A DNA stretch of 64,000 nucleotides from Patescibacteria group bacterium (GCA_036726225.1 DAIMCS010000001.1:5776-69775); one strand, 5' to 3'; positions 10,601-62,580 are shown, counted from the first letter of the stretch. Notes: generated by a model from the sequence alone, not told the origin. Numbers and translations are program-made.

Positions 10601-10683
10601 ATAGCAAAGACGGCAAACAGATTTTGAATGTAAATTTAAACGCTGCGCTAAAAGAATATAAATCTACTTTTAAAGATTATTGA
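7654..10683 (+). CDS. purL: phosphoribosylformylglycinamidine synthase subunit PurL fused to two N-terminal PurS-like domains (PurS-PurS-PurL)
   Basis: 1009 aa; PurL core from about residue 230 (…LGRQPTDVELEALAQTWSEHCKH…). The N-terminal 200 aa contain two repeats ending in the PurS C-terminal signature (LLANPLIQKT and LHNPLIQKA, cf. PurS …LLANPVIE…). Confidence 0.9.
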   Translation: MTRLYTTYTITDPRARLKKNQFEALGLKNKIGAVYLADCYTIDAKLDSKKLEKAKHLLANPLIQKTHTNPSTLPATRFSHAIEIGFLPGVTDNVGHTARETLQDGAKIKFKPGQNVYTSQVFFISGKISFADANKIALSLHNPLIQKASITSWDDFKKTGLGSGIPKVKIKSSNKILKVNLNVGDEELAKLGKLGIPDYPIPAKAGIHKNGSPIKSGMEEKRRGPLALSLGELKAIQAHFKKLGRQPTDVELEALAQTWSEHCKHTIFSDPIDEIKEGIFKHYIKRATEVIRKKKGRKDFCVSVFTDNAGGISFDSKNIIAYKVETHNTPSALDPFGGSITGIGGVNRDALGFGLGAKPVANFYGFCLADPGDKTKLYRDKQLKNPMLSSRRIMDGVVAGINAGGNQSGIPTPLGFLFFDSRYRGKPLVFAGTLGLIPKKIGNKKSWVKKAESQDLIVMVGGRVGMDGIHGATFSSEGLSSHSPATAVQIGDPITQKKFSDTICKEARDLNLYNSITDCGAGGISSAVGEMAKEAGGCLVELDKVPVKYPGLAPWQIWISESQERMVLAVPKNKWQKFLKLMNARGVEATVIGKFTQDNKCVVKYNGKNVLDLEMEFLHNGRPKQQQTTRKSKPVTHKLILQNKKDFSADVLKMLARLNITSTEFVNTQYDHEVQGTSILKPLQGRGKINSEAAVIRPLLDSKKGVVLSYGLNPLLSETDAYKMSANSIDAAIRSAVAAGANVNYMAILDNFCWCSPHDPKRLYQLKKAAQACFDIATAYGTPFISGKDSMHNDFKGFGNDGKPLKISIPPTLLITTMGVIENVEKAISLDVKLPGDLLYILGETNNELAGSEYLNYVIPAQAGIQKLGITPSVNTDKNLKLYRSFYQAVQNNLVASAISVNRGGLAVAVSKSVMGGGLGVQIDLKNLPGNWKVNAEGLFSESAGRILVSVAPQNAQKFEKLMHGNVFAKIGQVGKNPKLVINSKDGKQILNVNLNAALKEYKSTFKDY

Positions 10684-11531: not shown

Positions 11532-11994
11532 GCGAACTTACGAAATAATCGAACTACGAACCATGTATTCGCCTAATAAAATTAAAAAAACAGACCTCTT
11601 GTATCCAGAATTATCTTACAAAATTGTTGGAGCCCTTTTAGAAGTTAATAAAGAACTCGGGCCAAATCATCAAGAAAAACATTACCAGAAAGCAATAGCC
11701 GAAGAATTTAGACTAAAAGGAATTAATTTTAAGGAACAAGTTCCGATAAAATTGGTTTACAAAGATTTTCCAATCGGAATTTATTATGCCGATTTTATTG
11801 TTGAAGATAAAATTATCGTGGAATTAAAAACAGACCGATTTTTCACGAGAAAAAATATAGAGCAAACGCTCGCATATTTAAAAAGTTTTAATTTGAAACT
11901 TGGTATACTATCAAATTTTACTAAGAAAGGCTTAGAATATAAAAGAATTGTTAATTTAGAGACCGTTCGTAGTTCGGAAAAGTTCGTAAGTTCG
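11532..11994 (+). mobile_element. GxxExxY-gene cassette bounded by 29-bp imperfect terminal inverted repeats (CGAACTTACGAAataatCGAACTACGAAC … GTTCGTAGTTCGgaaaaGTTCGTAAGTTCG)
   Basis: IRs at 11532-11562 and 11965-11994 precisely bracket ORF 11563..12009 between purQ and purF; the ORF C-terminus is translated through the right IR. Confidence 0.5.
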
Positions 11995-12009
11995 AAGGAG
12001 CCAATATGA
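11563..12009 (+). CDS. GxxExxY-family protein (PD-(D/E)XK-like)
   Basis: VGALLEVNKELGPNHQEKHYQKAIAEEF matches the GxxExxY signature region; its stop overlaps the purF ATG. Confidence 0.75.
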   Translation: MYSPNKIKKTDLLYPELSYKIVGALLEVNKELGPNHQEKHYQKAIAEEFRLKGINFKEQVPIKLVYKDFPIGIYYADFIVEDKIIVELKTDRFFTRKNIEQTLAYLKSFNLKLGILSNFTKKGLEYKRIVNLETVRSSEKFVSSKEPI

Positions 12010-13440: not shown

Positions 13441-13476
13441 ACAATACATTCATACACGACTGTATGAATGTATTGT
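13441..13476. repeat. 36-bp perfect palindrome ACAATACATTCATACAcgacTGTATGAATGTATTGT immediately 5' of the YerC-like gene
   Basis: 16-bp perfect arms; a near-identical copy lies at 13975-14002 immediately 3' of the same gene. Confidence 0.7.
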
Positions 13477-13482
13477 CCGAAT

Positions 13483-13974
13483 ATGACAAAATTATCGCGT
13501 AAACACTTAGACCCAGAAAACTTTGGCCACTATGTTAACAACTTATGGTCGGCTTTTACTTTAATGGATTCTAAAGAAGATATTAAAACACTCTTTAAAG
13601 ATTTATTCACACACACCGAATACAAAATGTTTGCCAAGAGAATGGAGATCGCGAGACGGCTGCTAGAAGGTCAAACCTATGAGCAAATAGATAAAGAGTT
13701 ACACGTAACCGCAAGGACAATTACCACCGTAAACAATATTTTAGCTGAAAGGGGTGAGGGCTTACGCAAGGCTCACAATAAACTAAGTGCTTTGGAAGCA
13801 AAATATTTAGACAAACATCAGAAGATTACAAAAAACTTAGAAAACCCCTTCCGACAAAAGGCGAAAAGGAAAACCCTGGGAGGAGCCTTGCTTAAAGCCG
13901 GAATAATGGCCTTAGACAAAAGGATTAGCAAAAAATTAAAAGACAAAACCGCAAAAGACATGCTCGAAATTTAA
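13483..13974 (+). CDS. TrpR-like YerC/YecD-family DNA-binding protein with C-terminal basic extension
   Basis: LFKDLFTHTEYKMFAKRMEIARRLLEGQTYEQIDKELHVTARTITTVNNIL matches the YerC/TrpR-related HTH. Start set at the second ATG, outside the palindrome. Confidence 0.6.
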   Translation: MTKLSRKHLDPENFGHYVNNLWSAFTLMDSKEDIKTLFKDLFTHTEYKMFAKRMEIARRLLEGQTYEQIDKELHVTARTITTVNNILAERGEGLRKAHNKLSALEAKYLDKHQKITKNLENPFRQKAKRKTLGGALLKAGIMALDKRISKKLKDKTAKDMLEI

Positions 13975-14002
13975 CACATTCATACAGTCGTGTATGAATG
14001 TG
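13975..14002. repeat. second copy of the TGTATGAATGT palindrome (CACATTCATACAgtcgTGTATGAATGTG), followed by a T-run
   Basis: 12-bp perfect arms, then ttacttttttat. It lies between the YerC-like stop and the purN ATG. Confidence 0.7.
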
Positions 14003-19918: not shown

Positions 19919-20325
19919 CCTCCCTCCCCTGGAGGGGGAGGGCTGGGGAGGGGTGAATGACAAACCACACAACTCAAATATCAAGAAAGCTGCGCAATAA
20001 TCTAACCGAAGCAGAAAAAAAGCTATGGTATTATTTACGCAACAACAATCTCGGTGAAAAATTCAGAAGACAGCAACTTATTGGTACGTATTACGTCGAC
20101 TTTATCTGCCTAAAAAAATACTTAATTATTGAAGTTGACGGCGGGCAGCATTACGATTCTGCTGATGATAAAATTAGAGATAATTTTTTCAAAAAAGAAG
20201 GTTTTACAGTTTTAAGATTTTGGAACAATGAAGTTTTAGAAAACATTGAGGAAGTGTTAGAAAAAATCAAGGCTTATTTATAATTCATCACCCTCCCCTA
20301 ACCCCTCCCCTCAAGGGAGGGGAAT
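19919..20325 (+). mobile_element. GGGAGGGG palindromic element (copy E1) carrying a DUF559 endonuclease gene in its central loop
   Basis: Left arm 19919-19956 (CCTCCCTCCCCtggaGGGGGAGGGctgGGGAGGGGTGA) and right arm 20284-20325 (TCACCCTCCCCtaaCCCCTCCCctcaaGGGAGGGG) match the empty copies at 25145, 30988 and 35941. The ORF fills the spacer exactly, with its ATG abutting GGTGA and its TAA abutting TTCATCACCC. Confidence 0.6.
19957..20283 (+). CDS. DUF559 endonuclease-domain protein (Vsr-like / PD-(D/E)XK fold)
   Basis: 108 aa; YYVDF…IIEVDGGQH…D..R…L…G..VLRFWN signature of DUF559. Confidence 0.8.
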   Translation: MTNHTTQISRKLRNNLTEAEKKLWYYLRNNNLGEKFRRQQLIGTYYVDFICLKKYLIIEVDGGQHYDSADDKIRDNFFKKEGFTVLRFWNNEVLENIEEVLEKIKAYL

Positions 20326-21793: not shown

Positions 21794-22687
21794 ATGGAAA
21801 CAAAATCGTCTGGAATAAAAACTGCTTTTTTCATATTGCTGGCTCTTGCGCTGGTTGTTTTAGCTCTGGCCCAAATCCCCATTAATTGGCCCGACTTAAC
21901 TTTTGCCATTTTAGAACCTAAAGGGCTGATTGCAGAAAAGCAGCGCTGGTTAATAATTGCCGCCACTTTAATAATGCTAATTGCAGTGGCGCCGACATAT
22001 TTTTTTCTTTTTTATTTTTCAAAAAAATACAAAGCCGAAAAACAGGATGTTAACTACTCCCCAAATTTAACCAGTAACGCGAAATCCTCTTTTTTCCTTT
22101 GGGCTATACCGGTTGCGATAATTTTTGTAATTTCTATAATTATTGTAAAAAGCACTCATGAGTTGGATCCTTACAAGCCAATTGCATCTGCCAAAAAACC
22201 GCTGACTGTACAAGTAGTATCTTTAAGGTGGAAATGGCTTTTTATTTATCCCGAGCAAAATATAGCGACGGTTAACTTTATGCAAATTCCGGCGAACACG
22301 CCCATAAACTTTGAACTGACTTCCGACGGGCCAATGAACACTTTTTGGATCCCGCAGTTAGGCGGACAAATTTATACCATGGCAGCCATGAGCACCAAAC
22401 TGCATTTAATTGCCAACGAGACCGGAAATTTTGAAGGCCAGTCTTCCGAAATAAGCGGCAAAGGTTATTCCGGTATGCGTTTTAAAGTTAAGGCAACAAG
22501 CCGGGGAGAATTTGATGCGTGGGTAAAGGAAGTAAAAAACTCCCCTCAAATGCTGCACAAAGAGCAATACAACGAGCTCTTAGAGCCCAGTGAAAATCAT
22601 GAGCAAACCAATTATTCTATGGTGGAAAAAGACCTGTTCAATAGTATAATTATGAAGTATATGAGTCCTACAGAAATGGCTAAGTAA
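21794..22687 (+). CDS. cyoA: cytochrome o (bo3-type) ubiquinol oxidase subunit II, CuA-less
   Basis: Two N-terminal TM helices plus cupredoxin domain. SSEISGKGYSGMRFKVKATSRGEFDAWV matches CyoA and lacks the CuA Cys/His ligands. Confidence 0.8.
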   Translation: METKSSGIKTAFFILLALALVVLALAQIPINWPDLTFAILEPKGLIAEKQRWLIIAATLIMLIAVAPTYFFLFYFSKKYKAEKQDVNYSPNLTSNAKSSFFLWAIPVAIIFVISIIIVKSTHELDPYKPIASAKKPLTVQVVSLRWKWLFIYPEQNIATVNFMQIPANTPINFELTSDGPMNTFWIPQLGGQIYTMAAMSTKLHLIANETGNFEGQSSEISGKGYSGMRFKVKATSRGEFDAWVKEVKNSPQMLHKEQYNELLEPSENHEQTNYSMVEKDLFNSIIMKYMSPTEMAK

Positions 22688-23147
22688 GATATTTATAGAT
22701 ATTAGGATATTAATAGATACTATGGAAAGCAAACCTAATTATATTTCATTGCAGAATTTGGAAGTTTATCAGCTGTCACGGGAGTTGTCGCGAATAGGTT
22801 GGGAGATTTATCAAACTTTGGATTGGAAGATGCAAAAGATTAATGGTGATCAGTTTATAGAGTCAACGGATTCAACTGGGGCAAATATTGCCGAAGGTTA
22901 CGGAAGATTCCACTACCTCGATAGGATTAAGTTTTATTACAATGCGCGCGGTTCTTTTTTAGAATGCAATGAACATTGGATTGAATTGTTAAAAGAAAGA
23001 GGTCAGGTACCGGAAGAACTTTATAATCAATATAAACAAACGGCTGAAAAGTTTTCAAAAAAACTCAATAATTTCATCCATAGCACTTATCAAAGCAAAG
23101 CGAGCGAAGCTGATTAATATCCCAATATCAAATATCCAAATATCTTT
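22688..23147 (+). mobile_element. four-helix-bundle gene cassette flanked by inverted GATATT/AATATC iteron arrays
   Basis: Left 22688-22721 (GATATTtataGATATTaggATATTaatAGATACT); right 23118-23147 (TATCccAATATCaaATATCcaAATATCttt) is its approximate reverse complement. The cassette lies between cyoA and cyoB. Confidence 0.45.
22722..23117 (+). CDS. four-helix-bundle protein (TIGR02436, former '23S rRNA intervening-sequence protein' family)
   Basis: EVYQLSRELSRIGWEIY…GANIAEGYGRFHYLDRIKFYYNARGSFLECNEHW signature. Confidence 0.8.
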   Translation: MESKPNYISLQNLEVYQLSRELSRIGWEIYQTLDWKMQKINGDQFIESTDSTGANIAEGYGRFHYLDRIKFYYNARGSFLECNEHWIELLKERGQVPEELYNQYKQTAEKFSKKLNNFIHSTYQSKASEAD

Positions 23148-25136
23148 ATGAGCTCTTTAATTCTAGGCAATTTAACCTGGTCAGCACTCCCCCACGAATG
23201 GTTTACCGTTGGCGGGGCGGTTTCCATGACGCTTGGCGGTTTAACAGTCATATTTTTACTTACCTACTTTAAACGCTGGAAATGGCTGTGGAATGAATGG
23301 CTGACTTCCACTGACCCAAAAAAAATTGGGATTATGTACTTTGTAGTGGCTGCGCTTATGCTTACGCGCGGCGCGCTGGATGCCGGAATGATCTGGCTGC
23401 AGCAAACTCTTTCGGCCGGCGCAGGCACCGGGTTTTTAAGCGCCGAACATTTCCAGCAAATCTTTACCGCGCACGGCGCCATTATGGTCTTTTTTGTGAC
23501 CATGGGTTTTTTGGCCGGGCTCTGGAATTTTATTTTGCCTTTGCAAATTGGCGCGCGCGACGTCGCTTTCCCGCTTCTAAATACTTTAAGCTTTTGGTTG
23601 TTTGTTGCAGGCGCTATTTTAATGAATATGTTTTTCTTCCTTGGCGGAGAATTTTCTGCCGTGGGCTGGCTGGCTATTGCCCCGCTTTCCGGCATTGAGT
23701 TTAGTCCCGGCGTGGGGGTGGATTATTGGATATGGAGCCTGCAAATTTCAGGTCTTGGCACGCTGCTTGCGGGCGTAAACTTTATGGTCACAATTTTAAA
23801 AATGCGCGCCCCAGGAATGACTTTAATGCGTATGCCGCTTTTTGTCTGGAACGGGCTCTTAAGCCAAGTGCTAATACTTTCCGTTTTCCCTATTTTAGCA
23901 ATGACGCTAATTCTGCTTACGCTCGACAGAACTTTTGGCGCTCACTTTTTCACTTCTACCCACGGCGGCAACCCTATGCTTTACACCAACCTCATTTGGT
24001 CGTGGGGCCACCCGGAAGTTTATATTTTAATGATCCCGGCTTTTGGGGTGTATTCCGAAATTGTTTCCACCTTTAGCCAAAAAAAACTTTTTTCCTACAC
24101 GTCATTAGTTGCGGCTGCAATAATTATTACCCTCTTTTCTGTACTGGTTTGGCTGCACCACTTCTTTACCATGGGCGCGGGCGCAAATGTTAACGCTTTC
24201 TTTGGCATAATGACCGGCATAATTGCCATTCCCACCGGAGTCCAGGTTTTTTCCTGGCTGGCCACAATGTACAAAGGCAAAATTATTTTCCGCACGCCGC
24301 TGTATTGGTTTATTGGTTTTGTTGCCACCTTTACGCTGGGCGGCATGGCGGGAGTCATTTTAGGAATCCCCGGAGCTGACTTCCAGCTGCACAACAGTTT
24401 ATTTTTAGTCGCCCACTTCCACACTATGGCAATTGGCGGCGCGCTGTTTGGAATTTTCGCAGCTATTTCTTATTGGTTCCCCAAAATTACCGGTTTTAAG
24501 TTAAACGAAAAATTAGGGCGGTACGCTTTTTGGCTTTGGATTGTTGGCTTCCTCGTTTCGTTTATGCCTCTGTATATATTAGGTTTTATGGGCGCGTCCC
24601 GCAGGCTGGACCATTACGACGCCTCCTTAGGCTGGCAACCCCTGTTTGCCATAGCCGGTTTTGGTTTTTTAATTATTTGCGCAGCCGTTGCTATGCAGCT
24701 TTGGCAAATAGTTTACAGCTTTATTAAAAAAAGTGAAAATTTAGATGTTACCGGTGACCCGTGGAATGGCCGGGCTCTGGAGTGGGCCACAGCTTCCCCT
24801 CCCCCAATTTATAATTTTGCAGTTATCCCAAACGTAACCGATAAAGACGCGTTTTGGGAAATGAAAGCCAGCAGATCAGCAGATCAGCAGATCAGCAGAT
24901 CAGCTAAATACGAAGACATTCATATGCCCAAAAATACAGCAATGGGAATTTATATTTCCGCCTGCGCATTCCTGTTTGGCTTTGGTTTTGTCTGGCACAT
25001 TTGGTGGCTGGTTATTGCATCTTTAATTGCAGCAATTATTTTAATAATCACCCGTTCTTTTGACCAGGAGACCGAATACGTAATTACCGCCGCAGAAGTC
25101 GCTAAGATAGAATCGGAGCATAAAAGTTTTTACTAA
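23148..25136 (+). CDS. cyoB: cytochrome o ubiquinol oxidase subunit I (heme-copper oxidase)
   Basis: 662 aa; many TM helices; canonical HCO subunit I His ligands (…WSWGHPEVYIL…, HFHTMAIGG…). Confidence 0.9.
   Translation: MSSLILGNLTWSALPHEWFTVGGAVSMTLGGLTVIFLLTYFKRWKWLWNEWLTSTDPKKIGIMYFVVAALMLTRGALDAGMIWLQQTLSAGAGTGFLSAEHFQQIFTAHGAIMVFFVTMGFLAGLWNFILPLQIGARDVAFPLLNTLSFWLFVAGAILMNMFFFLGGEFSAVGWLAIAPLSGIEFSPGVGVDYWIWSLQISGLGTLLAGVNFMVTILKMRAPGMTLMRMPLFVWNGLLSQVLILSVFPILAMTLILLTLDRTFGAHFFTSTHGGNPMLYTNLIWSWGHPEVYILMIPAFGVYSEIVSTFSQKKLFSYTSLVAAAIIITLFSVLVWLHHFFTMGAGANVNAFFGIMTGIIAIPTGVQVFSWLATMYKGKIIFRTPLYWFIGFVATFTLGGMAGVILGIPGADFQLHNSLFLVAHFHTMAIGGALFGIFAAISYWFPKITGFKLNEKLGRYAFWLWIVGFLVSFMPLYILGFMGASRRLDHYDASLGWQPLFAIAGFGFLIICAAVAMQLWQIVYSFIKKSENLDVTGDPWNGRALEWATASPPPIYNFAVIPNVTDKDAFWEMKASRSADQQISRSAKYEDIHMPKNTAMGIYISACAFLFGFGFVWHIWWLVIASLIAAIILIITRSFDQETEYVITAAEVAKIESEHKSFY
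24869..24904. repeat. 8-bp tandem repeat (gcagatca) x4.5 inside the cyoB coding region (encodes SRSADQQISRSA)
   Basis: Direct reading of cagcagatcagcagatcagcagatcagcagatcagc. Confidence 0.85.
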
Positions 25137-25144
25137 AAAATAAA

Positions 25145-25229
25145 TTCCCTCCCCTTGAGGGGGAGGGCTAGGGAGGGGTGAAATCAAAAATTATCACCCT
25201 CCCCTAACCCCTCCCATCCAGGGAGGGGA
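25145..25229. repeat. GGGAGGGG palindromic element copy E2 (empty), between cyoB and cyoC
   Basis: TTCCCTCCCCttgaGGGGGAGGGctaGGGAGGGGTGA-aatcaaaaat-TATCACCCTCCCCtaaCCCCTCCCatccaGGGAGGGGAA. Confidence 0.8.
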
Positions 25230-25240
25230 AAGAAAGTACC

Positions 25241-25834
25241 ATGGAAGAAACCACTAATCAAAACCAGCTCGGCCATCACGACGACAGCAAAACCCAACTC
25301 GGGTTTTGGATTTACCTAATGACCGACCTAATGATGTTTGCCACCCTGTTTGCAACCTACGCCGCGCTCTCGGGCAGCACATTTGGCGGGCCCTCGGGAG
25401 CCGAACTTTTTAGCCTGCCGGACGCACTTAAACTTACCCTCATTTTACTGACCAGCAGTTTTACCTGCGGCCTGGCCATGCTTGCGGCGCACAAAGCAGA
25501 CAAAAAACAAACCATTTTTTGGTTTGTAATTACACTGATTTTGGGTTTGTCCTTTTTATTTTTTGAATTAAAAGAATTTTCTCACTTAATTGCCGAAGGC
25601 CACGCCTGGAAAAATAGCGCATTCCTCTCTTCCTTCTTTGCGCTCGTAGGCACCCACGGGTTGCACATTGCAGTAGGAGGGCTTTGGATACTTGTAGCCT
25701 TAAAACAAATTACACATTTGGGCTTAAACGGATTTGTAATCTCCAAACTCACCCGCTTAAGCCTTTACTGGCACTTTTTAGACATTGTTTGGATTTTTAT
25801 TTTTACTATTGTGTACCTAATGTCACAAGTTTAA
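25241..25834 (+). CDS. cyoC: cytochrome o ubiquinol oxidase subunit III
   Basis: 197 aa, 5 TM; heme-copper oxidase subunit III-like. Confidence 0.8.
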   Translation: MEETTNQNQLGHHDDSKTQLGFWIYLMTDLMMFATLFATYAALSGSTFGGPSGAELFSLPDALKLTLILLTSSFTCGLAMLAAHKADKKQTIFWFVITLILGLSFLFFELKEFSHLIAEGHAWKNSAFLSSFFALVGTHGLHIAVGGLWILVALKQITHLGLNGFVISKLTRLSLYWHFLDIVWIFIFTIVYLMSQV

Positions 25835-25927
25835 CCCCATTTCGACCGAACGTAGTGAGGGAGAAATCTGTTAAAAATCTGCACTGACGATTTACAGATC
25901 TCTCGCTTCGCTCGAGATGGTAATTAT

Positions 25928-26257
25928 ATGTCAACATTCAAATCATATTTAACCGGTTTCCTTCTCTCTATCGCGTTTACTTTAGGTGCCTATTTTGCCG
26001 TAACCAATCAGCTAAACAGTGCTCTTCCCATAATCCTTGGCCTAGCTTTCTTACAACTAGTAGTCCAAATATTTTTCTTCCTCCACGTGCACAAAGGCGC
26101 GGACCGAATTTGGAATTCTACTGTGCTCATCTCAACTTTAGGTGTTGTATTTATTTTAATTGCCGGATCCATTTGGATAATGACCCATTTAAACTACCAT
26201 ATGACTCCTATGCAAATGCAAGAGCATGTTATTAAAGACGAGGGCATACACAAGTAG
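25928..26257 (+). CDS. cyoD: cytochrome o ubiquinol oxidase subunit IV
   Basis: 109 aa, 3 TM, position in operon. Confidence 0.65.
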   Translation: MSTFKSYLTGFLLSIAFTLGAYFAVTNQLNSALPIILGLAFLQLVVQIFFFLHVHKGADRIWNSTVLISTLGVVFILIAGSIWIMTHLNYHMTPMQMQEHVIKDEGIHK

Positions 26258-27113
26258 AATGCTAAAGTCTTATTACTATTTAACCAAACCCGGCATAATT
26301 TACGGCAACGCTATAAATACCGCTGCCGGCTTTTTTTTGGCTTCGCAAGGCGCCTATGATTTTAAGTTGCTAATGATAACCATCGTAGGCATATCGCTAA
26401 TCGTTGCTTCGGCATGTGTCTTTAACAACATTCTGGATGCTAACATAGACGCCAAAATGGAACGCACCAAAAACCGCGCTATGGTTAGAGGTACTGTTAA
26501 AAAATCATACGCGATCACTTTTGGCATTGTACTGCTAATTTTTGGTATCACAAACTTAGCACTTAGCACTAACCACTTGGCACTCTACGCGGCCCTCATA
26601 GGCTTCTTTGTTTACGTCTTTCTTTATACTTTTAGTAAACGTTATTCTGTTTATGGAACCGAAATCGGCAGTGTTGCCGGAGCTATGCCACCTGTTGTGG
26701 GATATCTCTCTGTATCTTATGAAATTGATTCCGGGGCCATAATCCTATTTGCAATTTTTGTGCTTTGGCAAATGCCGCATTTTTATGCAATCGCAATTTA
26801 TCGTTTAAAAGAATATGTAGCAGCAGATATTCCAATTTTGTCCGCGGTCAAAGGTGTCCGCCGTACTAAGATGAATATTCTGGCTTACATACTTGCCTTC
26901 ACTGTGGCCGTTTTGCTTTTAAAGCTTTTAAATTATACCGGCTACGTTTACTTGTTTGTGATGAGTGTGCTGTGCTTAGCCTGGCTAGTAATGGCTTTTA
27001 GAGGTTTTAAGGCCGCCGATGATAGTAAATGGGCAAGAGGTATGTTTAAATTTTCCCTCCTAATAGTTTTGACTTTTTGTGTTATAATACCAATAGATAA
27101 ATTTCTTACATGA
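26226..27113 (+). CDS. cyoE: protoheme IX farnesyltransferase (heme O synthase)
   Basis: UbiA prenyltransferase family; 295 aa, polytopic; follows cyoD. Confidence 0.85.
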   Translation: MLLKTRAYTSRMLKSYYYLTKPGIIYGNAINTAAGFFLASQGAYDFKLLMITIVGISLIVASACVFNNILDANIDAKMERTKNRAMVRGTVKKSYAITFGIVLLIFGITNLALSTNHLALYAALIGFFVYVFLYTFSKRYSVYGTEIGSVAGAMPPVVGYLSVSYEIDSGAIILFAIFVLWQMPHFYAIAIYRLKEYVAADIPILSAVKGVRRTKMNILAYILAFTVAVLLLKLLNYTGYVYLFVMSVLCLAWLVMAFRGFKAADDSKWARGMFKFSLLIVLTFCVIIPIDKFLT

Positions 27114-30167: not shown

Positions 30168-30181
30168 CAATGCAGCCCTAT

Positions 30182-30213
30182 AACACCATCCCGACGACCG
30201 TCGGGATGGTGTT
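30182..30213. terminator. bidirectional terminator AACACCATCCCGACGaccGTCGGGATGGTGTT
   Basis: 15-bp perfect stem between convergent genes. Confidence 0.6.
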
Positions 30214-30226
30214 ATTTAAAACAATA

Positions 30227-30958: not shown

Positions 30959-30987
30959 AAATAAGATGTTAAAAAATTATGTTTTGA

Positions 30988-31092
30988 ATTCCCTCCCCTT
31001 GAGGGGGAGGGATTGGGAGGGGTGAAGTCAAAATCATCACCCTCCCCCTGCCTGCCGGCAGGCAGGCTAACCCCTCCCATCCAGGGAGGGGA
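30988..31092. repeat. GGGAGGGG palindromic element copy E3 (empty; extra internal palindrome CCTGCCTGCCGGCAGGCAGG)
   Basis: Same arms as E1 and E2; spacer agtcaaaatca. Confidence 0.8.
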
Positions 31093-31341
31093 AATTGAAA
31101 AATAAAAAGACCCCGGAGTTTCGGGGCCAATTATAAATAAATTACAAAAGCCCCGAATCAGCTATGATCGGAAAGCTTAAGGAATAAATTATGATAGCTA
31201 ACAATTACCATATATTAAGTGTACTACAAAACTTTTGTAGATGCAACCCTTGTCGGAAAACTTCGTTTATGGTATTGTATGTAGTTGCCATCATCAACGA
31301 TTTAACTTTCAACAGAGGCGAAAAAACGCCAAGGAGGATAG

Positions 31342-35309: not shown

Positions 35310-35783
35310 ATGAAAAAAATGTTAAAAGTTTCCTCCCTGCTGGCAATTGTTGCCGGCATTATTCTTGTTTCAGGCGGCATATGGGCCATAGTTTTTACCT
35401 GCAAAAACATTACGCAGGAAAAAATTATAACTCCGGCCGACGCCTCCATTGCGGGAAAACCGGTTAAAGGGCCCTTTACGCTCAAAGCGCAGGCAGATAT
35501 TATCCGCGAGCATACTTTAAAGTCAACCGGAGGCCTGACTTTCTCGGAAATGCCCAGACAGATTGAAAAGCTCGACCAAAACGGCAAGCCGGTCTTGGGT
35601 AAAGACGGCAAACCTGTTATGGTCGCAAACACCGCGCGCGACATTTGGATTACAGCAACAACTTTAACAACCGCCCTGAATTTGGCAATATTGACCTACT
35701 TATTTTCCGGCTTAATTGTGCTTTTAGGCTGCATCTCAATTTGGACCGGCATTGTCTTTCGCGCCCTTGCCCGAAAAAGTTAG
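35310..35783 (+). CDS. hypothetical protein with N- and C-terminal TM anchors
   Basis: Terminator 35804-35835 (AAAAAACAATGGG cgtaa CCCATTGTTTTTT). Confidence 0.45.
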   Translation: MKKMLKVSSLLAIVAGIILVSGGIWAIVFTCKNITQEKIITPADASIAGKPVKGPFTLKAQADIIREHTLKSTGGLTFSEMPRQIEKLDQNGKPVLGKDGKPVMVANTARDIWITATTLTTALNLAILTYLFSGLIVLLGCISIWTGIVFRALARKS

Positions 35784-35835
35784 CTATTATTAAATTGAAT
35801 ATACAAAAAACAATGGGCGTAACCCATTGTTTTTT

Positions 35836-35927
35836 TGTGTCATTCCGGTCCGCCTTAGGCGGATAATTTTATCCGGAATCTATTCATTGGCTAATTTCTG
35901 GATCCCGGATCGGTGTCCGGGATGACA
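35836..35927. mobile_element. MITE-like element with terminal inverted repeats TGTCATTCCGG … CCGGGATGACA and internal hairpins (TCCGCCttaGGCGGA; ATCCCGGAtcggtgTCCGGGAT)
   Basis: Direct reading. Related ends recur at 36383-36452, 36487-36520, 59095-59120 and 62316-62407. Confidence 0.5.
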
Positions 35928-35940
35928 TTTTTAGATTTGA

Positions 35941-36032
35941 TTCCTCCCCCTTGATGGGGGAGGTTAGGAGGGGGTGAAGGATAAAAAAACTTTATCACCC
36001 TCCCCTGCCGGCAGGCAGGCTCGGAATGACAT
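35941..36032. repeat. GGGAGGGG palindromic element copy E4 (right hairpin replaced by CCTGCCGGCAGGCAGG…CGGAATGACAT)
   Basis: Left arm TTCCTCCCCCttgatGGGGGAGGttaGGAGGGGGTGA and TCACCCTCCCC right half. Confidence 0.7.
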
Positions 36033-36049
36033 AAAGATAGGTAAATATT

Positions 36050-36373
36050 TTAATATATACGCTGTATGCCTGTAAAACTACTGTATACCAGTAAAATTAC
36101 TACCGCTAACGCAAGCCAACAAAGCGTATAAATAAACAATTTTATCGCATCGCTTTTTTGGTTCTCCAAAAACAGCATTACAGGTTTACCTACCACCAGT
36201 CCGCCGGTAATGGCTGCAGAAAGGACAAAAAGCGTTAAGAATGCTATTGGCGCCGTAATCTGATTCATGCCGTTGAAAATTCTTTCGCCATTTTGCATAA
36301 TGGTGACGACAATGGACACATAGGCAATTGTGCCAAGCGCGTTTAGCAAACTTCGTTGGATGAGATTGTTCAT
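36050..36373 (-). CDS. hypothetical membrane protein
   Basis: Start set at ATG 36373 (MNNLIQ…), just downstream of the MITE-like element 36383-36452. Confidence 0.4.
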   Translation of the reverse strand: MNNLIQRSLLNALGTIAYVSIVVTIMQNGERIFNGMNQITAPIAFLTLFVLSAAITGGLVVGKPVMLFLENQKSDAIKLFIYTLCWLALAVVILLVYSSFTGIQRIY

Positions 36374-36382
36374 ATGGTTTTC

Positions 36383-36452
36383 TGTGTCATTCCGAACTCG
36401 TTTCGGAATCCACAATCTTAGGATGGATCCTGAAATAAATTCAGGATGACAT
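36383..36452. mobile_element. MITE-like element (TGTGTCATTCCGAActcgtTTCGGAATC…CCTGAAataaaTTCAGGATGACAT)
   Basis: Terminal TGTCATTCC / GGATGACA inverted repeats and two internal hairpins. Confidence 0.5.
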
Positions 36453-36530
36453 CAAGTAAATTAATCTTTAAGAGATCCCTCCACTCCCCCTCGCTTCGCT
36501 CGGGGTCGGTCGGGATGACATAACAAAAAA

Positions 36531-37019
36531 TTACACCGTTAAATCGTTTTCGGATTTTATATCCACAGCACTTTGCAAAGTCCGTTGAAGGACCGCCGCC
36601 GCAGTGGCAATGACAATACAAATAAAGGTAGAGATCATTCCCAGCATTACAGCTCCCGCTGCATCCTCGTTGTTGCTGCGTGAGGCTATCATAAGGTAGG
36701 CATCTGCTCCCACTATAGCACCCGCTGTAATTAGCACGCTATATTTTATAGCCCGCAAAGCTTTTACACCTGCTTGAGAAAATATTTTATTTTCCCTGGC
36801 GTATCCGAGTAGCTTAAATGCCTTATAAAGCGCCACAAAAAATGGGACGGAACCTAAATACGCATAAGCTAGAAAAGGGTCGTCAAAATAAATATCCGAG
36901 AGTGTAGTAGCGTGCGCGTTCACGCCCTCAAGCCACGGCTCCCAAAGCATTAAAGTAATAAGGCCGAGACCAAAAATTACAATTATTACCTGAAGAAATA
37001 TTGTTAAGCTTTTTTTCAT
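36531..37019 (-). CDS. DUF2975-family membrane protein (paralog of 37455..37937)
   Basis: 4 TM; C-terminus …AAVLQRTLQSAVDIKSENDLTV is near-identical to its paralog. Classic pairing with a YozG-like XRE regulator. Confidence 0.6.
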   Translation of the reverse strand: MKKSLTIFLQVIIVIFGLGLITLMLWEPWLEGVNAHATTLSDIYFDDPFLAYAYLGSVPFFVALYKAFKLLGYARENKIFSQAGVKALRAIKYSVLITAGAIVGADAYLMIASRSNNEDAAGAVMLGMISTFICIVIATAAAVLQRTLQSAVDIKSENDLTV

Positions 37020-37037
37020 AGAATTTTTCCTTATTAC

Positions 37038-37131
37038 TCTCTCCAATGCTTGGAGAGATGTCGCCGAAGGCGACAGAGAGGTTAGTTCTTAGAATCAACC
37101 TCTCCCTAGCCCTCCCCAAGTCTTGGGGAGG
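37038..37131. repeat. array of four consecutive perfect hairpins in the XRE→DUF2975 intergenic spacer
   Basis: TCTCTCCAatgcTTGGAGAGA; TGTCGCCgaaGGCGACA; GAGAGGTTagttcttagaatcAACCTCTC; CCTCCCCAagtcTTGGGGAGG. Confidence 0.7.
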
Positions 37132-37147
37132 GAATTTAATTTGTAAA

Positions 37148-37345
37148 CTATTTGAATTCCAAAATATCCCCCGGCTGGCAATCTAAGGCTTTGCAGATTG
37201 CTTCTAAAGTAGAAAAACGAATTGCTCTGGCTTTTCCGTTTTTTAGTATTGAAATATTAGCCATAGTTATTCCGACCTTTTCCGTAAGCTCGGTAACACT
37301 CATCTTCTTTTTGGCTAACATTACGTCGATGTTGATTATAATCAT
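37148..37345 (-). CDS. XRE-family (Cro/C1, YozG-like) HTH transcriptional regulator
   Basis: 65 aa; MSVTELTEKVGITMANISILKNGKARAIRFSTLEAICKALDCQPGDILEF. Confidence 0.85.
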   Translation of the reverse strand: MIIINIDVMLAKKKMSVTELTEKVGITMANISILKNGKARAIRFSTLEAICKALDCQPGDILEFK

Positions 37346-37360
37346 AAATTTAACTTTTTA

Positions 37361-37433
37361 TTCCATCCCCGACCCCGATCGGGGATCCAACTAAATGCTT
37401 TAGAACTGGATTCCCGCCTCCGCGGGAATGGAA
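37361..37433. mobile_element. MITE-like hairpin element (CCCCGAtcGGGG core plus TTCCCGCctccGCGGGAATGG)
   Basis: Near-identical module TTCCCGCcttcGCGGGAATGG at 62553-62577 and a nested version at 62364-62404. Confidence 0.5.
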
Positions 37434-37454
37434 AAATTATTTTTAAAATACCCC

Positions 37455-37937
37455 TTAAACTGTTAAGTCGTTTTCCGATTTTATATTAATTGCACTCTGG
37501 AGCACTTTTTGCAGCACAGCCGCAAAGGTAGCAATGACCAAAGGAGCGCAGGCAAAGGCTAAAGCAATTACTCCGGCGCCCGGCGCATCGTCCAGCTCTG
37601 CTAATTGAAATAAGAATGGTATACCTGTGGCATACAAAATGCTAATTGCTATTGCCGAATATTTTATAGACTTTAAAGCACTAACCGAAGCCTGTGAGAA
37701 TGCCGTATCCTTGTCTATATAATTTAAAAGTTTGAAGGCCTGGTATAACGCATTGAAAAAAGGAATTATGGAAAGATACAAACCGGCCATAAACAACCGC
37801 AGGAAAGTGATTGTGCTGGGAAATTCTTCTGAGCCCCCGCTGTAAATGGAAGGTAGCGCAAAAATACCTACGGCCAGAGCTATAATTCCCATAAGTACTA
37901 AAACTGCGCGCAAGAACCAGGTTGATCCTTTTTTCAT
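37455..37937 (-). CDS. DUF2975-family membrane protein
   Basis: Paralog of 36531..37019; 4 TM. Confidence 0.6.
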   Translation of the reverse strand: MKKGSTWFLRAVLVLMGIIALAVGIFALPSIYSGGSEEFPSTITFLRLFMAGLYLSIIPFFNALYQAFKLLNYIDKDTAFSQASVSALKSIKYSAIAISILYATGIPFLFQLAELDDAPGAGVIALAFACAPLVIATFAAVLQKVLQSAINIKSENDLTV

Positions 37938-38052
37938 AAATAGCTTACTTATTTGTTGATATTTATATAGTATACCCTTATTTATTGTTTGTCAATATAT
38001 ATTTATTGTTGCTTATACACATATACCTAATTTTGTATTAAAAAATGATATA

Positions 38053-40906: not shown

Positions 40907-41503
40907 ATGGAAAATAATACTACGCCTCAAAAAGATGACCAACCCCGACGCCCGGAGGGGTCGGGGCCCCGACCGCAAGCGTCGGGGAAAATTACCCCGT
41001 GTTTATGGTTTGAAAAAGACTGCGAAGAAGGCGTTAACTTTTATGTCTCAGTCTTTAATAGCGCGCCTAAAAGCAACGGCAATTCTAAAGTAGTGAGCCT
41101 TCACAAATATCCTGACAACATTGAAAACCCACCCTGGCCCAAAGAAGTCAACGGCAAGGTCATTACCGCAATTTTTGAGCTGGAAGGACAGAAGTTTATG
41201 GCTTTGGATGGCGGGCCCGGCGTTTTTCCAAAAAGCGGGCAAGTCTCGCTACTAATTGATTGCGAAACCCAAGAAGAAGTTGACCACTTTTGGAACAAAC
41301 TCACAGAAGGCGGCGACATTAAAGCCCAGCAATGCGGCTGGCTCGCGGATAAATATGGTTTTGCCTGGCAGGTAAACCCTAAGCGGTTGGGTGAACTTTT
41401 AAGCGATCCGAACAAAGAAAAATCCGGACGGGTTATGCAGGCTATGCTTAAGATGAAAAAAATAATAATTGCGGACCTGGAAAAAGCGGCAAACAATAAT
41501 TAA
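40907..41503 (+). CDS. VOC-family protein (PhnB-like / 3-demethylubiquinone-9 3-methyltransferase domain)
   Basis: ITPCLWFEKDCEEGVNFYVSVF signature; low-complexity N-terminal extension. Confidence 0.7.
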   Translation: MENNTTPQKDDQPRRPEGSGPRPQASGKITPCLWFEKDCEEGVNFYVSVFNSAPKSNGNSKVVSLHKYPDNIENPPWPKEVNGKVITAIFELEGQKFMALDGGPGVFPKSGQVSLLIDCETQEEVDHFWNKLTEGGDIKAQQCGWLADKYGFAWQVNPKRLGELLSDPNKEKSGRVMQAMLKMKKIIIADLEKAANNN

Positions 41504-41753
41504 TTTATAGCTGCCGTCCCGGAATTTTTGCGCCAGATGATCATCTTAGGCAAAAAATATCCGGGACCCAGATCCTGGATTCCCTGCCTGCGGCAGAAAA
41601 AACAATGACAACAATCAAAGGGAAATTAACAACTTGCAGCCGGGGGCATAAATTTTATAAAAGCAGCGCAAGGCCTGTATGTCCTATCTGCTGGCCGGGT
41701 CGGTATAAAAAAGTTAAAAGCTTATAGTCTAAAAATTAATTGAAAGGAAATAT

Positions 41754-42140
41754 ATGAACCCAGTAGTTCACTTTGAAATGCCTGCAGAAGACAACGCGCG
41801 GGTAAAGAAATTTTACGAAGATGTATTTGGCTGGCAAATGACCCAAATGGGAGATGAAATGGGTAATTACCTTTTAGCCGGCACCACCCCAGTGGACGAA
41901 AACAGGATGCCATTAAATAAAGGGGCTATTAACGGCGGCTTCTATAAAAAAGGCAGGGATGGAACAATTCCGCATGTGGTAATTTCCGTGGACAATCTAA
42001 GCGAATCCATGGAAGCGGTAAAAAAAGCGGGCGGCAATGTTCAGGGTGAACCTATGGACATACCCGGTATTGGCAAATTTATTATGTTTAAAGACACCGA
42101 GGACAACCGAGTCGGTATGCTCCAACCAAAAAGTATGTAA
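41754..42140 (+). CDS. VOC-family glyoxalase / bleomycin-resistance-fold protein
   Basis: MNPVVHFEMPAEDNARVKKFYEDVFGW… typical VOC N-terminus. Confidence 0.7.
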   Translation: MNPVVHFEMPAEDNARVKKFYEDVFGWQMTQMGDEMGNYLLAGTTPVDENRMPLNKGAINGGFYKKGRDGTIPHVVISVDNLSESMEAVKKAGGNVQGEPMDIPGIGKFIMFKDTEDNRVGMLQPKSM

Positions 42141-42171
42141 ATAATAAAAAGCAGCCCAACACTATATACCC

Positions 42172-42244
42172 CAAAATTTCCTAAAACCTACCCCCGACCT
42201 TAGAGGTCGGGGGTTTTTGTTTGCCTGAAATACTCTGGTATACT
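42172..42244 (+). repeat. 73-bp direct repeat copy 1 (terminator CCCCCGACCttagaGGTCGGGGG+T-run, plus TTGTTT-16-TATACT promoter-like module)
   Basis: Identical to 44546-44618; the two copies flank the LamG/Fn3 gene. Confidence 0.85.
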
Positions 42245-44545: not shown

Positions 44546-44618
44546 CAAAATTTCCTAAAACCTACCCCCGACCTTAGAGGTCGGGGGTTTTTGTTTGCCT
44601 GAAATACTCTGGTATACT
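44546..44618 (+). repeat. 73-bp direct repeat copy 2 (terminator plus promoter-like module)
   Basis: Identical to copy 1. Confidence 0.85.
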
Positions 44619-44644
44619 TTAAATGTAAGAAAAAATAAAGCCCA

Positions 44645-58213: not shown

Positions 58214-58333
58214 CTAAGGTAGCTTTTCCCATATGCGATTTTTCTCGTTTTCTACTTAATTGTAGATGTCAGGTATAAGCACCTGTAGGCTTTATCGACT
58301 CCCGCTTGTGCGGGATTTAGAAAAGCTACCTAG
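58214..58333. repeat. inverted-repeat element (TAAGGTAGCTTTTC … GAAAAGCTACCTAG) enclosing a TCCCGCttgtGCGGGA hairpin, in a 430-bp non-coding gap
   Basis: 13/14-bp long-range IR; core hairpin of the TTCCCGC…GCGGGAA family. Confidence 0.5.
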
Positions 58334-59069: not shown

Positions 59070-59134
59070 AGAAAGAGATTCCTCGCTCGTCCGCCAACTG
59101 GCGGAGCACTCGCTCGGAATGACGCCGTGAGGGG

Positions 59135-60436: not shown

Positions 60437-60538
60437 AAAAAAATGCCGCTCTTACTACTTTATAACTTTATAAATATTAAAACTTTATCCCTACGAAAAA
60501 TATAGTCGGGATCCCGACATTGCTATCGTCGGGATAAC

Positions 60539-62315: not shown

Positions 62316-62407
62316 AGTCATCCCGACCGAAGTGGAGGGATCCCTTTAATCTAGTATTTAAGATTCCCGCCTTCGCCTGCCTACCGCAGGCAGGCGGGAA
62401 TGACATT
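62316..62407. mobile_element. MITE-like element (GTCATCCCGACC … nested TTCCCGCCttcgCCTGCCTACCGCAGGCAGGCGGGAATGACAT)
   Basis: Terminal GTCATCC/GGAATGAC IRs; nested hairpins shared with 37361-37433 and with the E3/E4 CCTGCC…GGCAGG palindromes. Confidence 0.5.
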
Positions 62408-62490
62408 GTTATTCTAGCTTATTTTGCTATATTGACAAAATAGGCCTTTTTGTGATATAATATTAGGTTAGTATAAATAGTTGATTTTTA

Positions 62491-62580
62491 TGTCGTCCCG
62501 GAATCGCAATTTATTGCGATATCCGGGATCTAAGGCCCTGGCTTTGTTTTTCTGGATTCCCGCCTTCGCGGGAATGGACA
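62491..62580. mobile_element. MITE-like element (TGTCGTCCCGGAATCGCAAtttatTGCGATATCCGGGAT … TTCCCGCcttcGCGGGAATGGACA)
   Basis: Two hairpin modules, both with paralogs elsewhere in the window. Confidence 0.5.

Follow-up and report, generated by a model that had tools for sequence, protein, structure and literature searches.

The region around positions 35,836 to 37,433 of a 64,000-nucleotide (nt) stretch of DNA from a Patescibacteria group bacterium (GCA_036726225.1 DAIMCS010000001.1:5776-69775), the whole of which we call the window, is a minus-strand four-gene operon that encodes a DUF2975 protein, an XRE regulator, a second DUF2975 protein, and a small membrane protein. G+C-rich hairpins lie in all four spacers of this operon, as an earlier reading made from the sequence alone (the sequence-only reading) had reported, and the window as a whole is rich in them. 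Counting perfect G+C-rich hairpins with a stem of at least 8 and a loop of 3-7, we found 28 in the window, compared with 2.1 ± 1.4 when the sequence was shuffled 20 times by dinucleotides; 21 of the 28 lie in non-coding DNA, which makes up 12% of the window. Single words of the repeats recur to a similar effect, with GTCATTCC occurring 8 times (1.1 expected) and TTCCCGC-N4-GCGGGAA 4 times (0.01 expected).

As judged from sequence, the region is a mosaic of two repeat families, and very probably the repeats of the operon are inserted repetitive extragenic palindromic (REP) units of the CGTC type, together with derivatives of a second element that carries a DUF559 gene. The coordinates of these features and of the operon genes are collected in Table 1. 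One good promoter-like site was found for the operon, at 37995-37967 upstream of 37937, and it overlaps the box TATATTGACAAACGATAAA, which is also present upstream of the operon in three relatives (L011, L137, and L139). The box TATATTGACAAAC(G/A)ATAAA, found upstream of DUF2975-XRE operons in the window (37960-38000) and in the relatives (L011:4925-4965, L137:215-255, and L139:3820-3860), probably comprises both the promoter and the XRE regulator's operator.

Two repeat families in the operon spacers

Read from its tag, a unit of the first family consists of TGTC, an 8-bp stem beginning AT, a loop of 4-6 nt, the other arm of the stem, and CCA. About 15 such units are spread over 9 separate loci in the 64 kb, and ∼10 kb of extra flank held none. 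Four pairs are inverted, with their tags outward and their CCA/TGG tails inward (35838-35927, 36385-36451, 37361-37433, and 8251-8310), and the members of a pair are unlike, one being of the ATTCCCGC type and the other of the ATCCCCGA type; units also occur alone, at 10224-10250, 36475-36520, and 62553-62580. On the minus strand, the pair at 37361-37433 reads TTCC-ATTCCCGC-ggag-GCGGGAAT-CCA, a 17-nt spacer, and TGG-ATCCCCGA-tcgggg-TCGGGGAT-GGAA. That at 36385-36451 has the form TGTC-ATTCCGAA-ctcgt-TTCGGAAT-CCA, a spacer, and TGG-ATCCTGAA-ataaa-TTCAGGAT-GACA, and its minimum-free-energy fold is one long hairpin of the kind formed by a REP doublet forming a hairpin (REPIN), a fold into two hairpins also being possible. 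In the pair at 35838-35927, TGTC-ATTCCGG[..]CCGGAAT is followed by TGG-ATCCCGGA-tcggtg-TCCGGGAT-GACA, and the first loop encloses a further, small hairpin, TCCGCCttagGGCGGA (35849-35863).

The 15 units of the window vary most in their ends. The tag is TGTC in 7, AGTC or GTCC in 2, and degenerate (TTCC, CCCC, or other) in the remaining 6, and the tail is CCA in 9 and CTA, CCC, CTT, or CTC in four others. Every one of the 15 stems starts AT, and the first two pairs are AU and then UA in all 14 distinct units. Units of the ATTCCCGC type have loops of 4 nt, those of the ATCCCCGA, ATCCCGGA, and ATCCTGAA types loops of 5-6 nt, and exceptional loops of 9-32 nt arise because further hairpins are nested in them. 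Set side by side, the units at 36475-36520 and 62316-62343 are the same apart from a 20-nt hairpin in the loop of the former; the hairpin GCCTGCCT is similarly nested in 62359-62405, and very small hairpins (TCCGCC..GGCGGA, TGTCGCC..GGCGACA, and CCTGCC..GGCAGG) sit in the loops of both families. The mix-and-match modules proposed in the sequence-only reading are borne out by this combining and nesting of elements. Most of the recurrences that it named outside the operon are likewise confirmed, namely those at 41516-41600 and 59074-59124 and the four of the second cluster (62316-62343, 62359-62405, 62492-62530, and 62553-62580), the exception being 58214-58333, which is only loosely similar. 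This last is a long inverted repeat, TAAGGTAGCTTTTC...GAAAAGCTACCTAGG, around CTCCCGCttgtGCGGGAT, in a 436-nt spacer, and has no Rfam match. Further copies, at 30180-30215 and 60507-60538, had gone unmentioned, as had the copies in coding regions described below (8251-8310, 10224-10250, and 40913-40987).

The second family is built differently. Its full-length member is ordered as hairpin A, arm B, an open reading frame (ORF) for a DUF559 endonuclease, arm B', and hairpin C; in sequence terms, the ORF is framed by a CCCTCCCC hairpin and a GGGAGGGG arm on one side and by a CCCTCCCC arm and a CCCCTCCC hairpin on the other. Gene-less copies at 25140-25232, 30985-31095, 35938-36031, and 37035-37135 align with both of its ends, and the full-length element at 19919-20325 is their presumed parent. 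In the copy at 37035-37135, which has diverged, compensatory changes have kept hairpins A, B, and C intact, and there is an extra hairpin, TGTCGCCgaaGGCGACA, nested at 37059-37075, its four hairpins spanning 37038-37132. The copy at 35938-36031 is a composite of GGGAGGGG-family hairpins A and B, a CCTGCC..GGCAGG hairpin remnant, and the REP end CGGAATGACA. Because the four-hairpin array and this composite align with the DUF559-carrying element, the single family of the sequence-only reading has to be divided into two, with the array (37038-37131) and the composite, there called copy E4, deriving from the DUF559-carrying element.

Two further DUF559 genes lie within the same three-hairpin frame, the second such gene of this genome, between nusA and clpP, and one in another Patescibacteria genome; these frames are at L265:1455-1865 and L266:1465-1865. 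The three-hairpin DUF559 (Vsr-like) element has the look of an autonomous element accompanied by miniature derivatives, and a literature search found no description of a DUF559 mobile element. Contigs from independent metagenome assemblies of this organism break off at or within GGGAGGGG-type repeats (at 31148 and 35953), which points indirectly to these repeats being present in multiple copies in the genome. Of the genome-wide spread proposed in the sequence-only reading, what is shown covers ∼75 kb of genome and such contig ends. Hairpins of the GGGAGGGG type also sit between COX1 and COX3 in a heme-copper oxidase gene set at 21794-27113 (COX1, 23148-25136; COX3, 25241-25834; COX4_pro, 25928-26257; UbiA/heme O synthase, 26226-27113), a set that is also present in a relative (L012:1-1930).

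Table 1. Positions of the operon, its signals, and the repeat elements in the window (aa, amino acids)
Feature	Position	Strand	Remarks
REP heterodimer, exactly 60 nt, in frame in PurSL (PIPAKAGIHKNGSPIKSGME)	8251-8310	+	N-domain/linker junction
Single TGTC-tagged REP, 27 nt, in frame in PurSL (VIPAQAGIQ)	10224-10250	+	near residue 857
Full-length GGGAGGGG element, 407 nt	19919-20325	+	DUF559 ORF 19957-20283, Pfam PF04480, E=1.5e-37
Bidirectional intrinsic terminator	35805-35835		13-bp hairpin between A and T runs; outside repeat families
REP heterodimer	35838-35927		RNA fold z=-5.3
Composite element (copy E4)	35938-36031		begins 10 nt past the 35838-35927 element
Predicted membrane protein gene, 107 aa	36050-36373	-	last gene of operon; no Pfam match
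REP heterodimer	36385-36451		ends 11 nt before ATG of next gene
Single TGTC-tagged REP unit	36475-36520	-	20-nt hairpin (36486-36505) nested in loop
DUF2975 membrane-protein gene 2, 162 aa	36531-37019	-	Pfam PF11188, E=1e-29
Gene-less diverged GGGAGGGG element copy (four-hairpin array of the sequence-only reading)	37035-37135	-	RNA fold -56.7 kcal/mol, z=-6.4
XRE/Cro-C1 HTH_26 regulator gene, 65 aa	37148-37345	-	Pfam PF13443, E=6e-25
REP heterodimer	37361-37433	-	fills DUF2975-to-XRE junction; RNA fold -35.5 kcal/mol, z=-2.3
DUF2975 membrane-protein gene 1, 160 aa	37455-37937	-	Pfam PF11188, E=6e-32
Sigma-70-like promoter, TTGACA-17-TACTAT	37967-37995	-	5' of first DUF2975 gene
75-nt in-frame insertion (25 aa)	40913-40987	+	after codon 2 of 3-dmu-9_3-mt family gene
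Second REP cluster: 62316-62343, 62359-62405, 62492-62530, 62553-62580	within 62316-62580

Related operons and genes with empty sites

The spacer between the first DUF2975 gene and the XRE gene measures 109 nt in the window and only 1-11 nt in eight related operons (L011-L014 and L138-L141; protein identity 66-81%). The spacer between XRE and the next gene is likewise longer here (128 nt versus 14-78 nt), as is that before the last gene, which is 157 nt compared with 66 nt in the relative that has the same four-gene order. At the position of this last gene the relatives have an ORF of 102-113 aa. Given that the junctions are tight in eight related operons (1-11 nt versus 109 nt), we interpret the operon repeats as insertions. 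The relative with the 78-nt junction (L014) itself carries one related hairpin there, and GGGAGGGG, CCTGCCTG, and TCCGCC hairpins are present in the relatives at non-orthologous places. In keeping with the dispersed miniature palindromes of the sequence-only reading, the elements recur elsewhere in the window, and none was found at the orthologous junctions of relatives. For DUF2975, PurSL, and DUF559 alike, the best homologues with a named source come from Candidatus Doudnabacteria and other Patescibacteria, and DUF2975 homologues in general are mostly from Patescibacteria/Doudnabacteria.

Copies of the REP family also lie in frame within coding sequence. The PurSL ORF (1009 aa, 7654-10683) contains extra segments of 20 and 9 aa that match a REP dimer and a single REP exactly, and both segments are missing from the closest homologues (P0122 and P0123 for 8251-8310), at 69-70% identity. 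Within the second of them, the 21-mer ATTCCCGCGCAGGCGGGAATC at 10228-10248 matches the master sequence of the Neisseria REPINs at every base, and the solved Thermus PurL has a gap at this insertion site. The insertion at 40913-40987, in the 3-dmu-9_3-mt family gene, holds two tandem CCCCGAC..GTCGGGG hairpins and parts the start codon from the conserved protein body; it is missing in homologues at 80% and 61% identity. All three (60 and 27 nt in PurSL and 75 nt in the 3-dmu-9_3-mt gene) are in-frame insertions in a protein gene with none in the orthologues, as is characteristic of a Rickettsia palindromic element (RPE).

PurSL residues ∼200-219 and 857-865 are insertion hotspots across Patescibacteria, and in other lineages these hotspots hold unrelated palindrome-encoded peptides (VIARRSASDDEAI.., NHPPLTPPLKGGE, ADKSARY, and SAEALAKVED..). 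Elsewhere in PurSL there are at least 20 more lineage-specific insert blocks, and among close relatives the protein ranges from 946 to 1096 aa in length, largely through such inserts. The purine operon of the window has two other features, an ORF of the Trp_repressor family (13468-13974) between two near-identical hairpins, CATTCATACA-N4-TGTATGAATG (13441-14002), and an ORF for a PD-(D/E)XK nuclease (PDDEXK_3, 11563-12009) between purQ and purF. Farther along, a direct repeat of ∼94 nt, ∼94% identical (42140-42235 and 44546-44639), stands on either side of a 721-aa Laminin_G_3 gene and includes an 11-bp-stem terminator-like hairpin, ACCCCCGACCTtagAGGTCGGGGGT, with a T-run, and sequence downstream of it.

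Distribution, rival explanations, and proposed mobilization

A scan of species-representative genomes for the exact 24-mer core CATTCCCGC-N4-GCGGGAATCCA returned at least 120 matches where ∼1 is expected by chance (20 specified bases, 596 Gb). Over 20 phylum-level names are represented among the matches listed, which come from isolates (Neisseria, Sphingomonas, Azospirillum, and Massilia), from closed chromosomes of metagenome-assembled genomes (MAGs; Chloroflexota, Nitrospirota, and Planctomycetota), from five Patescibacteria, and from one MAG of Nanoarchaeota, among others. In 142 of the 157 units among the matches listed, CGT or TGT stands directly upstream, at bases that the pattern had left free; the loops of these units are strongly oriented (GAAA, GAAG, and GCAG), and 45% of the units have an inverted partner within 60 nt. 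The heterodimer pattern gave at least 120 matches in metagenome contigs, and among those listed the G+C content ranges from 0.32 to 0.72 and the free arm and tag are as expected in 74-77% of the heterodimers. Predicted viral contigs likewise gave at least 120 matches to the 24-mer core. Among deposited phage genomes only that of Microcystis phage MaAM05 (MW495066.1), a 274-kb cyanophage, matches the CGTC-1 REP core, which it carries at 16 places (e.g. 207337-207367), and the repeat is also found on megaplasmids or chromids of Azospirillum, Legionella, Cupriavidus, and sphingomonads. That phages serve as its vectors would be conjecture on these findings. Our literature search found no paper that links REP, REPIN, or REP-associated tyrosine transposase (RAYT) with Patescibacteria or the candidate phyla radiation (CPR), and a search for the repeat-encoded peptides (RESGNP, PAKAGI, and similar) returned irrelevant matches only.

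These data bear on several other explanations of the repeats. That they are functional RNA or DNA structures selected in place (terminators, attenuators, mRNA stabilizers, or processing sites), and not mobile, seems to us improbable. In its favor, the spacers are predicted to form stable RNA structures (z from -2.3 to -6.4), a distance of 11-22 nt separates the ends of the elements from the start codons that follow, and mRNA stabilization by REPs is known in other bacteria; moreover, the curated Francisella small RNA (sRNA) model FtrB has the same hairpin. Against this, the structures are missing from the same junctions in eight related operons, the same units occur in coding sequences, at unrelated loci, and in other phyla, and their orientation to transcription is mixed. 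The likeness to FtrB also falls short: the model aligns end to end with 37332-37455 (-) at 32.2 bits, far below its gathering score of 66, so that the locus is not an FtrB member, and the sub-threshold match arises because the FtrB model contains the same REP. At gathering thresholds Rfam found tRNA only in the window, and at permissive thresholds sub-threshold matches only. No T-run lies 3' of the hairpins on the transcribed strand, and for that reason the repeats are not conserved terminators. As candidate terminators the spacers themselves were rejected, since no minus-strand terminator-like site was found in any of them. The only classical terminator of the operon region is the one at 35805-35835, which lies outside the repeats and separates the convergent gene at 35310-35783 (+) from the operon. 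The modules are thus neither restricted to the window nor T-run terminators fixed in place, the two findings that the sequence-only reading had named beforehand as ones that would speak against mobile repeats.

We give slightly less credence to the possibility that the palindromes arise in place when DNA is replicated or repaired (through template switching or snap-back synthesis) and are homogenized by intrastrand correction. Such a process would account for the perfect, strictly Watson-Crick stems with their two-sided changes, for the small hairpins nested in loops, for the failure to find a transposase, and for the permissive sites of PurSL that hold unrelated palindromes in different lineages. 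What it cannot explain is a sequence of 24-60 nt, complete with unpaired tag, oriented loop, and CCA tail, at hundreds of unrelated loci in more than 20 phyla among the matches listed.

About as improbable is that the elements are classical miniature inverted-repeat transposable elements (MITEs), that is, deletion derivatives of a DDE insertion sequence with the ends TGTCATTCC...GGAATGACA, mobilized in trans. Three TGTC...GACA elements of 67-90 nt do have inverted-repeat ends and there are dispersed copies, and the sequence-only reading had called the elements MITE-like and named such ends. In the strict sense the term does not hold, as neither target-site duplications nor a parent insertion sequence were found. 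No duplication flanks any copy, the flanks of a dimer being different from each other (e.g. TTGA before and CAGA after, or AAAA before and CAAA after), and the elements are therefore not classical MITEs. The supposed terminal inverted repeats, TGTCATTCC...GGAATGACA, are instead the tag and stem of two inverted and separable REP units, which stand alone at 10224-10250, 36475-36520, and 62553-62580; the same units are documented elsewhere as REPs, and no transposase was found among the families listed for the window or in its flanks. An integron-like cassette array, with an attC-type site after each gene, would agree with co-oriented genes that are each followed by an imperfect palindrome of 46-101 nt, and it can be rejected with near certainty, since relatives have the same gene order without palindromes, inspection revealed no RYYYAAC/GTTRRRY core sites, and no integrase was found nearby.

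Our preferred explanation, that junctions once tight were colonized by short non-coding palindromic repeats, takes identity, insertion, mobilization by a RAYT-like enzyme, and an effect on mRNA together, and as a whole we consider it probable. Its parts differ in strength. By analogy with the REP/RAYT systems of Escherichia coli and Neisseria, we tentatively propose that the REP units are mobilized by a RAYT-like enzyme: the units would spread as single-stranded DNA hairpins, and an HUH tyrosine transposase acting in trans would cut at the tag. Over the 15 units, 95.5% of stem cells are Watson-Crick paired, two-sided changes occur at 5 of the 8 positions, and G-U pairs number 0; the absence of G-U pairs together with the two-sided changes suggests a constraint at the level of the DNA hairpin rather than that of the RNA hairpin. 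It is possible, again by analogy, that the repeats also affect the operon mRNA. Co-transcribed with the genes, they would form stable RNA hairpins that lack U-tracts and might break translational coupling between the genes, and they would probably act, as E. coli REPs do, as barriers to 3'-exonucleases or as processing sites rather than as terminators. Most likely the repeats would be near-neutral passengers tolerated in permissive sites.

Several observations weigh against this explanation or limit it. The covariation tally is partly circular, the units having been picked as hairpins; no two dimers of the window are identical, their spacers are unrelated, and only the 8-bp stems recur, so that the window gives no sign of a recently amplifying "master" population. 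The relatives with empty sites are only 66-81% identical in protein, too distant to date the intergenic insertions or to give their exact boundaries, and ten other contigs of the organism, which encode an identical XRE protein and are 99.9-100% identical to the window (with few mismatches, at a contig end), are identical in the elements and so uninformative on presence or absence between strains. No RAYT/Y1 or other transposase is among the families listed when the 67 ORFs of the window were scanned against Pfam in three batches (the best 25 families being listed for two of the three), none was found in ∼10 kb of extension to the window (two 10-kb extensions; ∼75 kb of genome in total), and searches with E. 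coli RayT by tblastn and blastp gave no homologue, either in the window or in the 1.5 Mb of DNA that flanks the repeat at 240 other loci. The mobilization step is accordingly pure analogy because no transposase was found, and the effect on mRNA is one that we infer. A survey of CGTC REPs concluded, too, that they have no dedicated transposase (Di Nocera, De Gregorio & Rocco 2013; PMC3733652). The absence of RAYT in the DNA examined is nonetheless what would be expected if RAYT were a single-copy gene elsewhere in the genome, and it also agrees with the 2013 survey. An all-against-all comparison of 4789 ORFs from the 240 loci showed no gene family enriched near the repeat, only generic families, sensor kinases, and ABC ATPases.

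A different activity might move the repeats, and we think it unlikely, though worth stating, that CGTC-type REP heterodimers multiply by such means in reduced, RAYT-less Patescibacteria genomes; the mover could be a different small nuclease, the cell's machinery for replication or repair, or an enzyme that a phage or a host cell provides. If this were so, the near-identical element of 24-60 nt in more than 20 phyla among the matches listed, in predicted viral contigs, and in a jumbo cyanophage would represent ongoing horizontal spread and not vertical co-evolution with a transposase, and the enzyme that eluded the 2013 survey would best be sought in a gene-poor genome of ∼1 Mb. The search for the mover of CGTC REPs would become narrower with a minimal genome in which there are many copies.

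REP elements are among the most abundant bacterial non-coding repeats, and the small genomes of the CPR are usually described as poor in mobile DNA. That the CGTC-tagged branch reaches this radiation, that REPs of Patescibacteria insert repeatedly in operon junctions and in frame in essential enzymes, and that the same short sequence is common to very distant lineages are the points of wider interest here. For annotation, the repeats lead to inflated ORFs and to spurious peptides (VIPAKAGI and similar), and metagenome assemblies break at them.

Comparison with known repeat systems

Among the systems that we compared, E. coli REPs and the bacterial interspersed mosaic elements (BIMEs) that they form have known effects on mRNA stability and related processes. 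Like the repeats described here, they are hairpins with a 5' tetranucleotide tag that alternate in orientation in the intergenic regions of operons; unlike them, they have the tag GTAG and another stem sequence, and a homologue of their RayT was not detected in the sequences that we examined. The consensus of Rfam RF02748 (FtrB, Francisella sRNA B) has GUCAUUCCCGCGUAGGCGGGAAUC and a second hairpin, which is equivalent to a REP pair of the CGTC family.

The RPEs of Rickettsia resemble the coding copies in being short palindromes in frame in housekeeping genes, where they encode short peptides at permissive sites. They are longer (100-150 nt), and the likeness to RPE-6 is taken from the literature; Rickettsia is moreover an obligate intracellular alphaproteobacterium, whereas the present host is a free-living or episymbiotic organism of the environment.

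The dRS3 repeats, Neisseria intergenic mosaic elements (NIMEs), and REPINs of Neisseria have an identical core, cluster with other repeats into intergenic mosaics, and form doublets that fold as a long hairpin. The sequence ATTCCCGCGCAGGCGGGAATC is the master sequence of the Neisseria REPINs and is linked to a Group 2 RAYT (Bertels & Rainey, bioRxiv 10.1101/2021.07.10.451892). Neisseria thus combines a Group 2 RAYT with hundreds of near-identical copies, whereas the copies here are all different and no RAYT was found in the DNA examined (∼75 kb of genome); likewise, the intervening "RS" modules of the NIMEs are not those of this window.

The closest counterparts are the CGTC-1 and CGTC-2 REPs. 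As described in the 2013 survey (PMC3733652), these have a CGTC, TGTC, or CCTC tag, a stem of 8-9 bp beginning AT, a loop of 4 nt in family 1 and 5 nt in families 2-4 (4-5 nt overall), and a CCA tail; they occur mostly as dimers, often heterodimers, some lie inside genes, and CGTC-1 is equated there with Neisseria dRS3 and Rickettsia RPE-6. The units of the window share with them the unpaired 5' tag (CGTC, often TGTC), the 8-bp stem that starts with A-T and T-A pairs, the CCA tail, and a loop of either 4 nt (ATTCCCGC-N4-GCGGGAAT) or 5-6 nt (ATCCCCGA type), and they are arranged in the same way, as inverted pairs that are often heterodimers and have spacers of 6-40 nt, lying outside genes for the most part and within them in some cases. 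They differ in the many degenerate tags (TTCC and CCCC), in the hairpins nested in loops, and in the three in-frame insertions per 64 kb, and also in their host, since Patescibacteria (CPR) are not among the five phyla of the 2013 list. The CGTC-tagged REP superfamily had already been described and is very widespread, and its extension to Patescibacteria adds a new phylum to the family.

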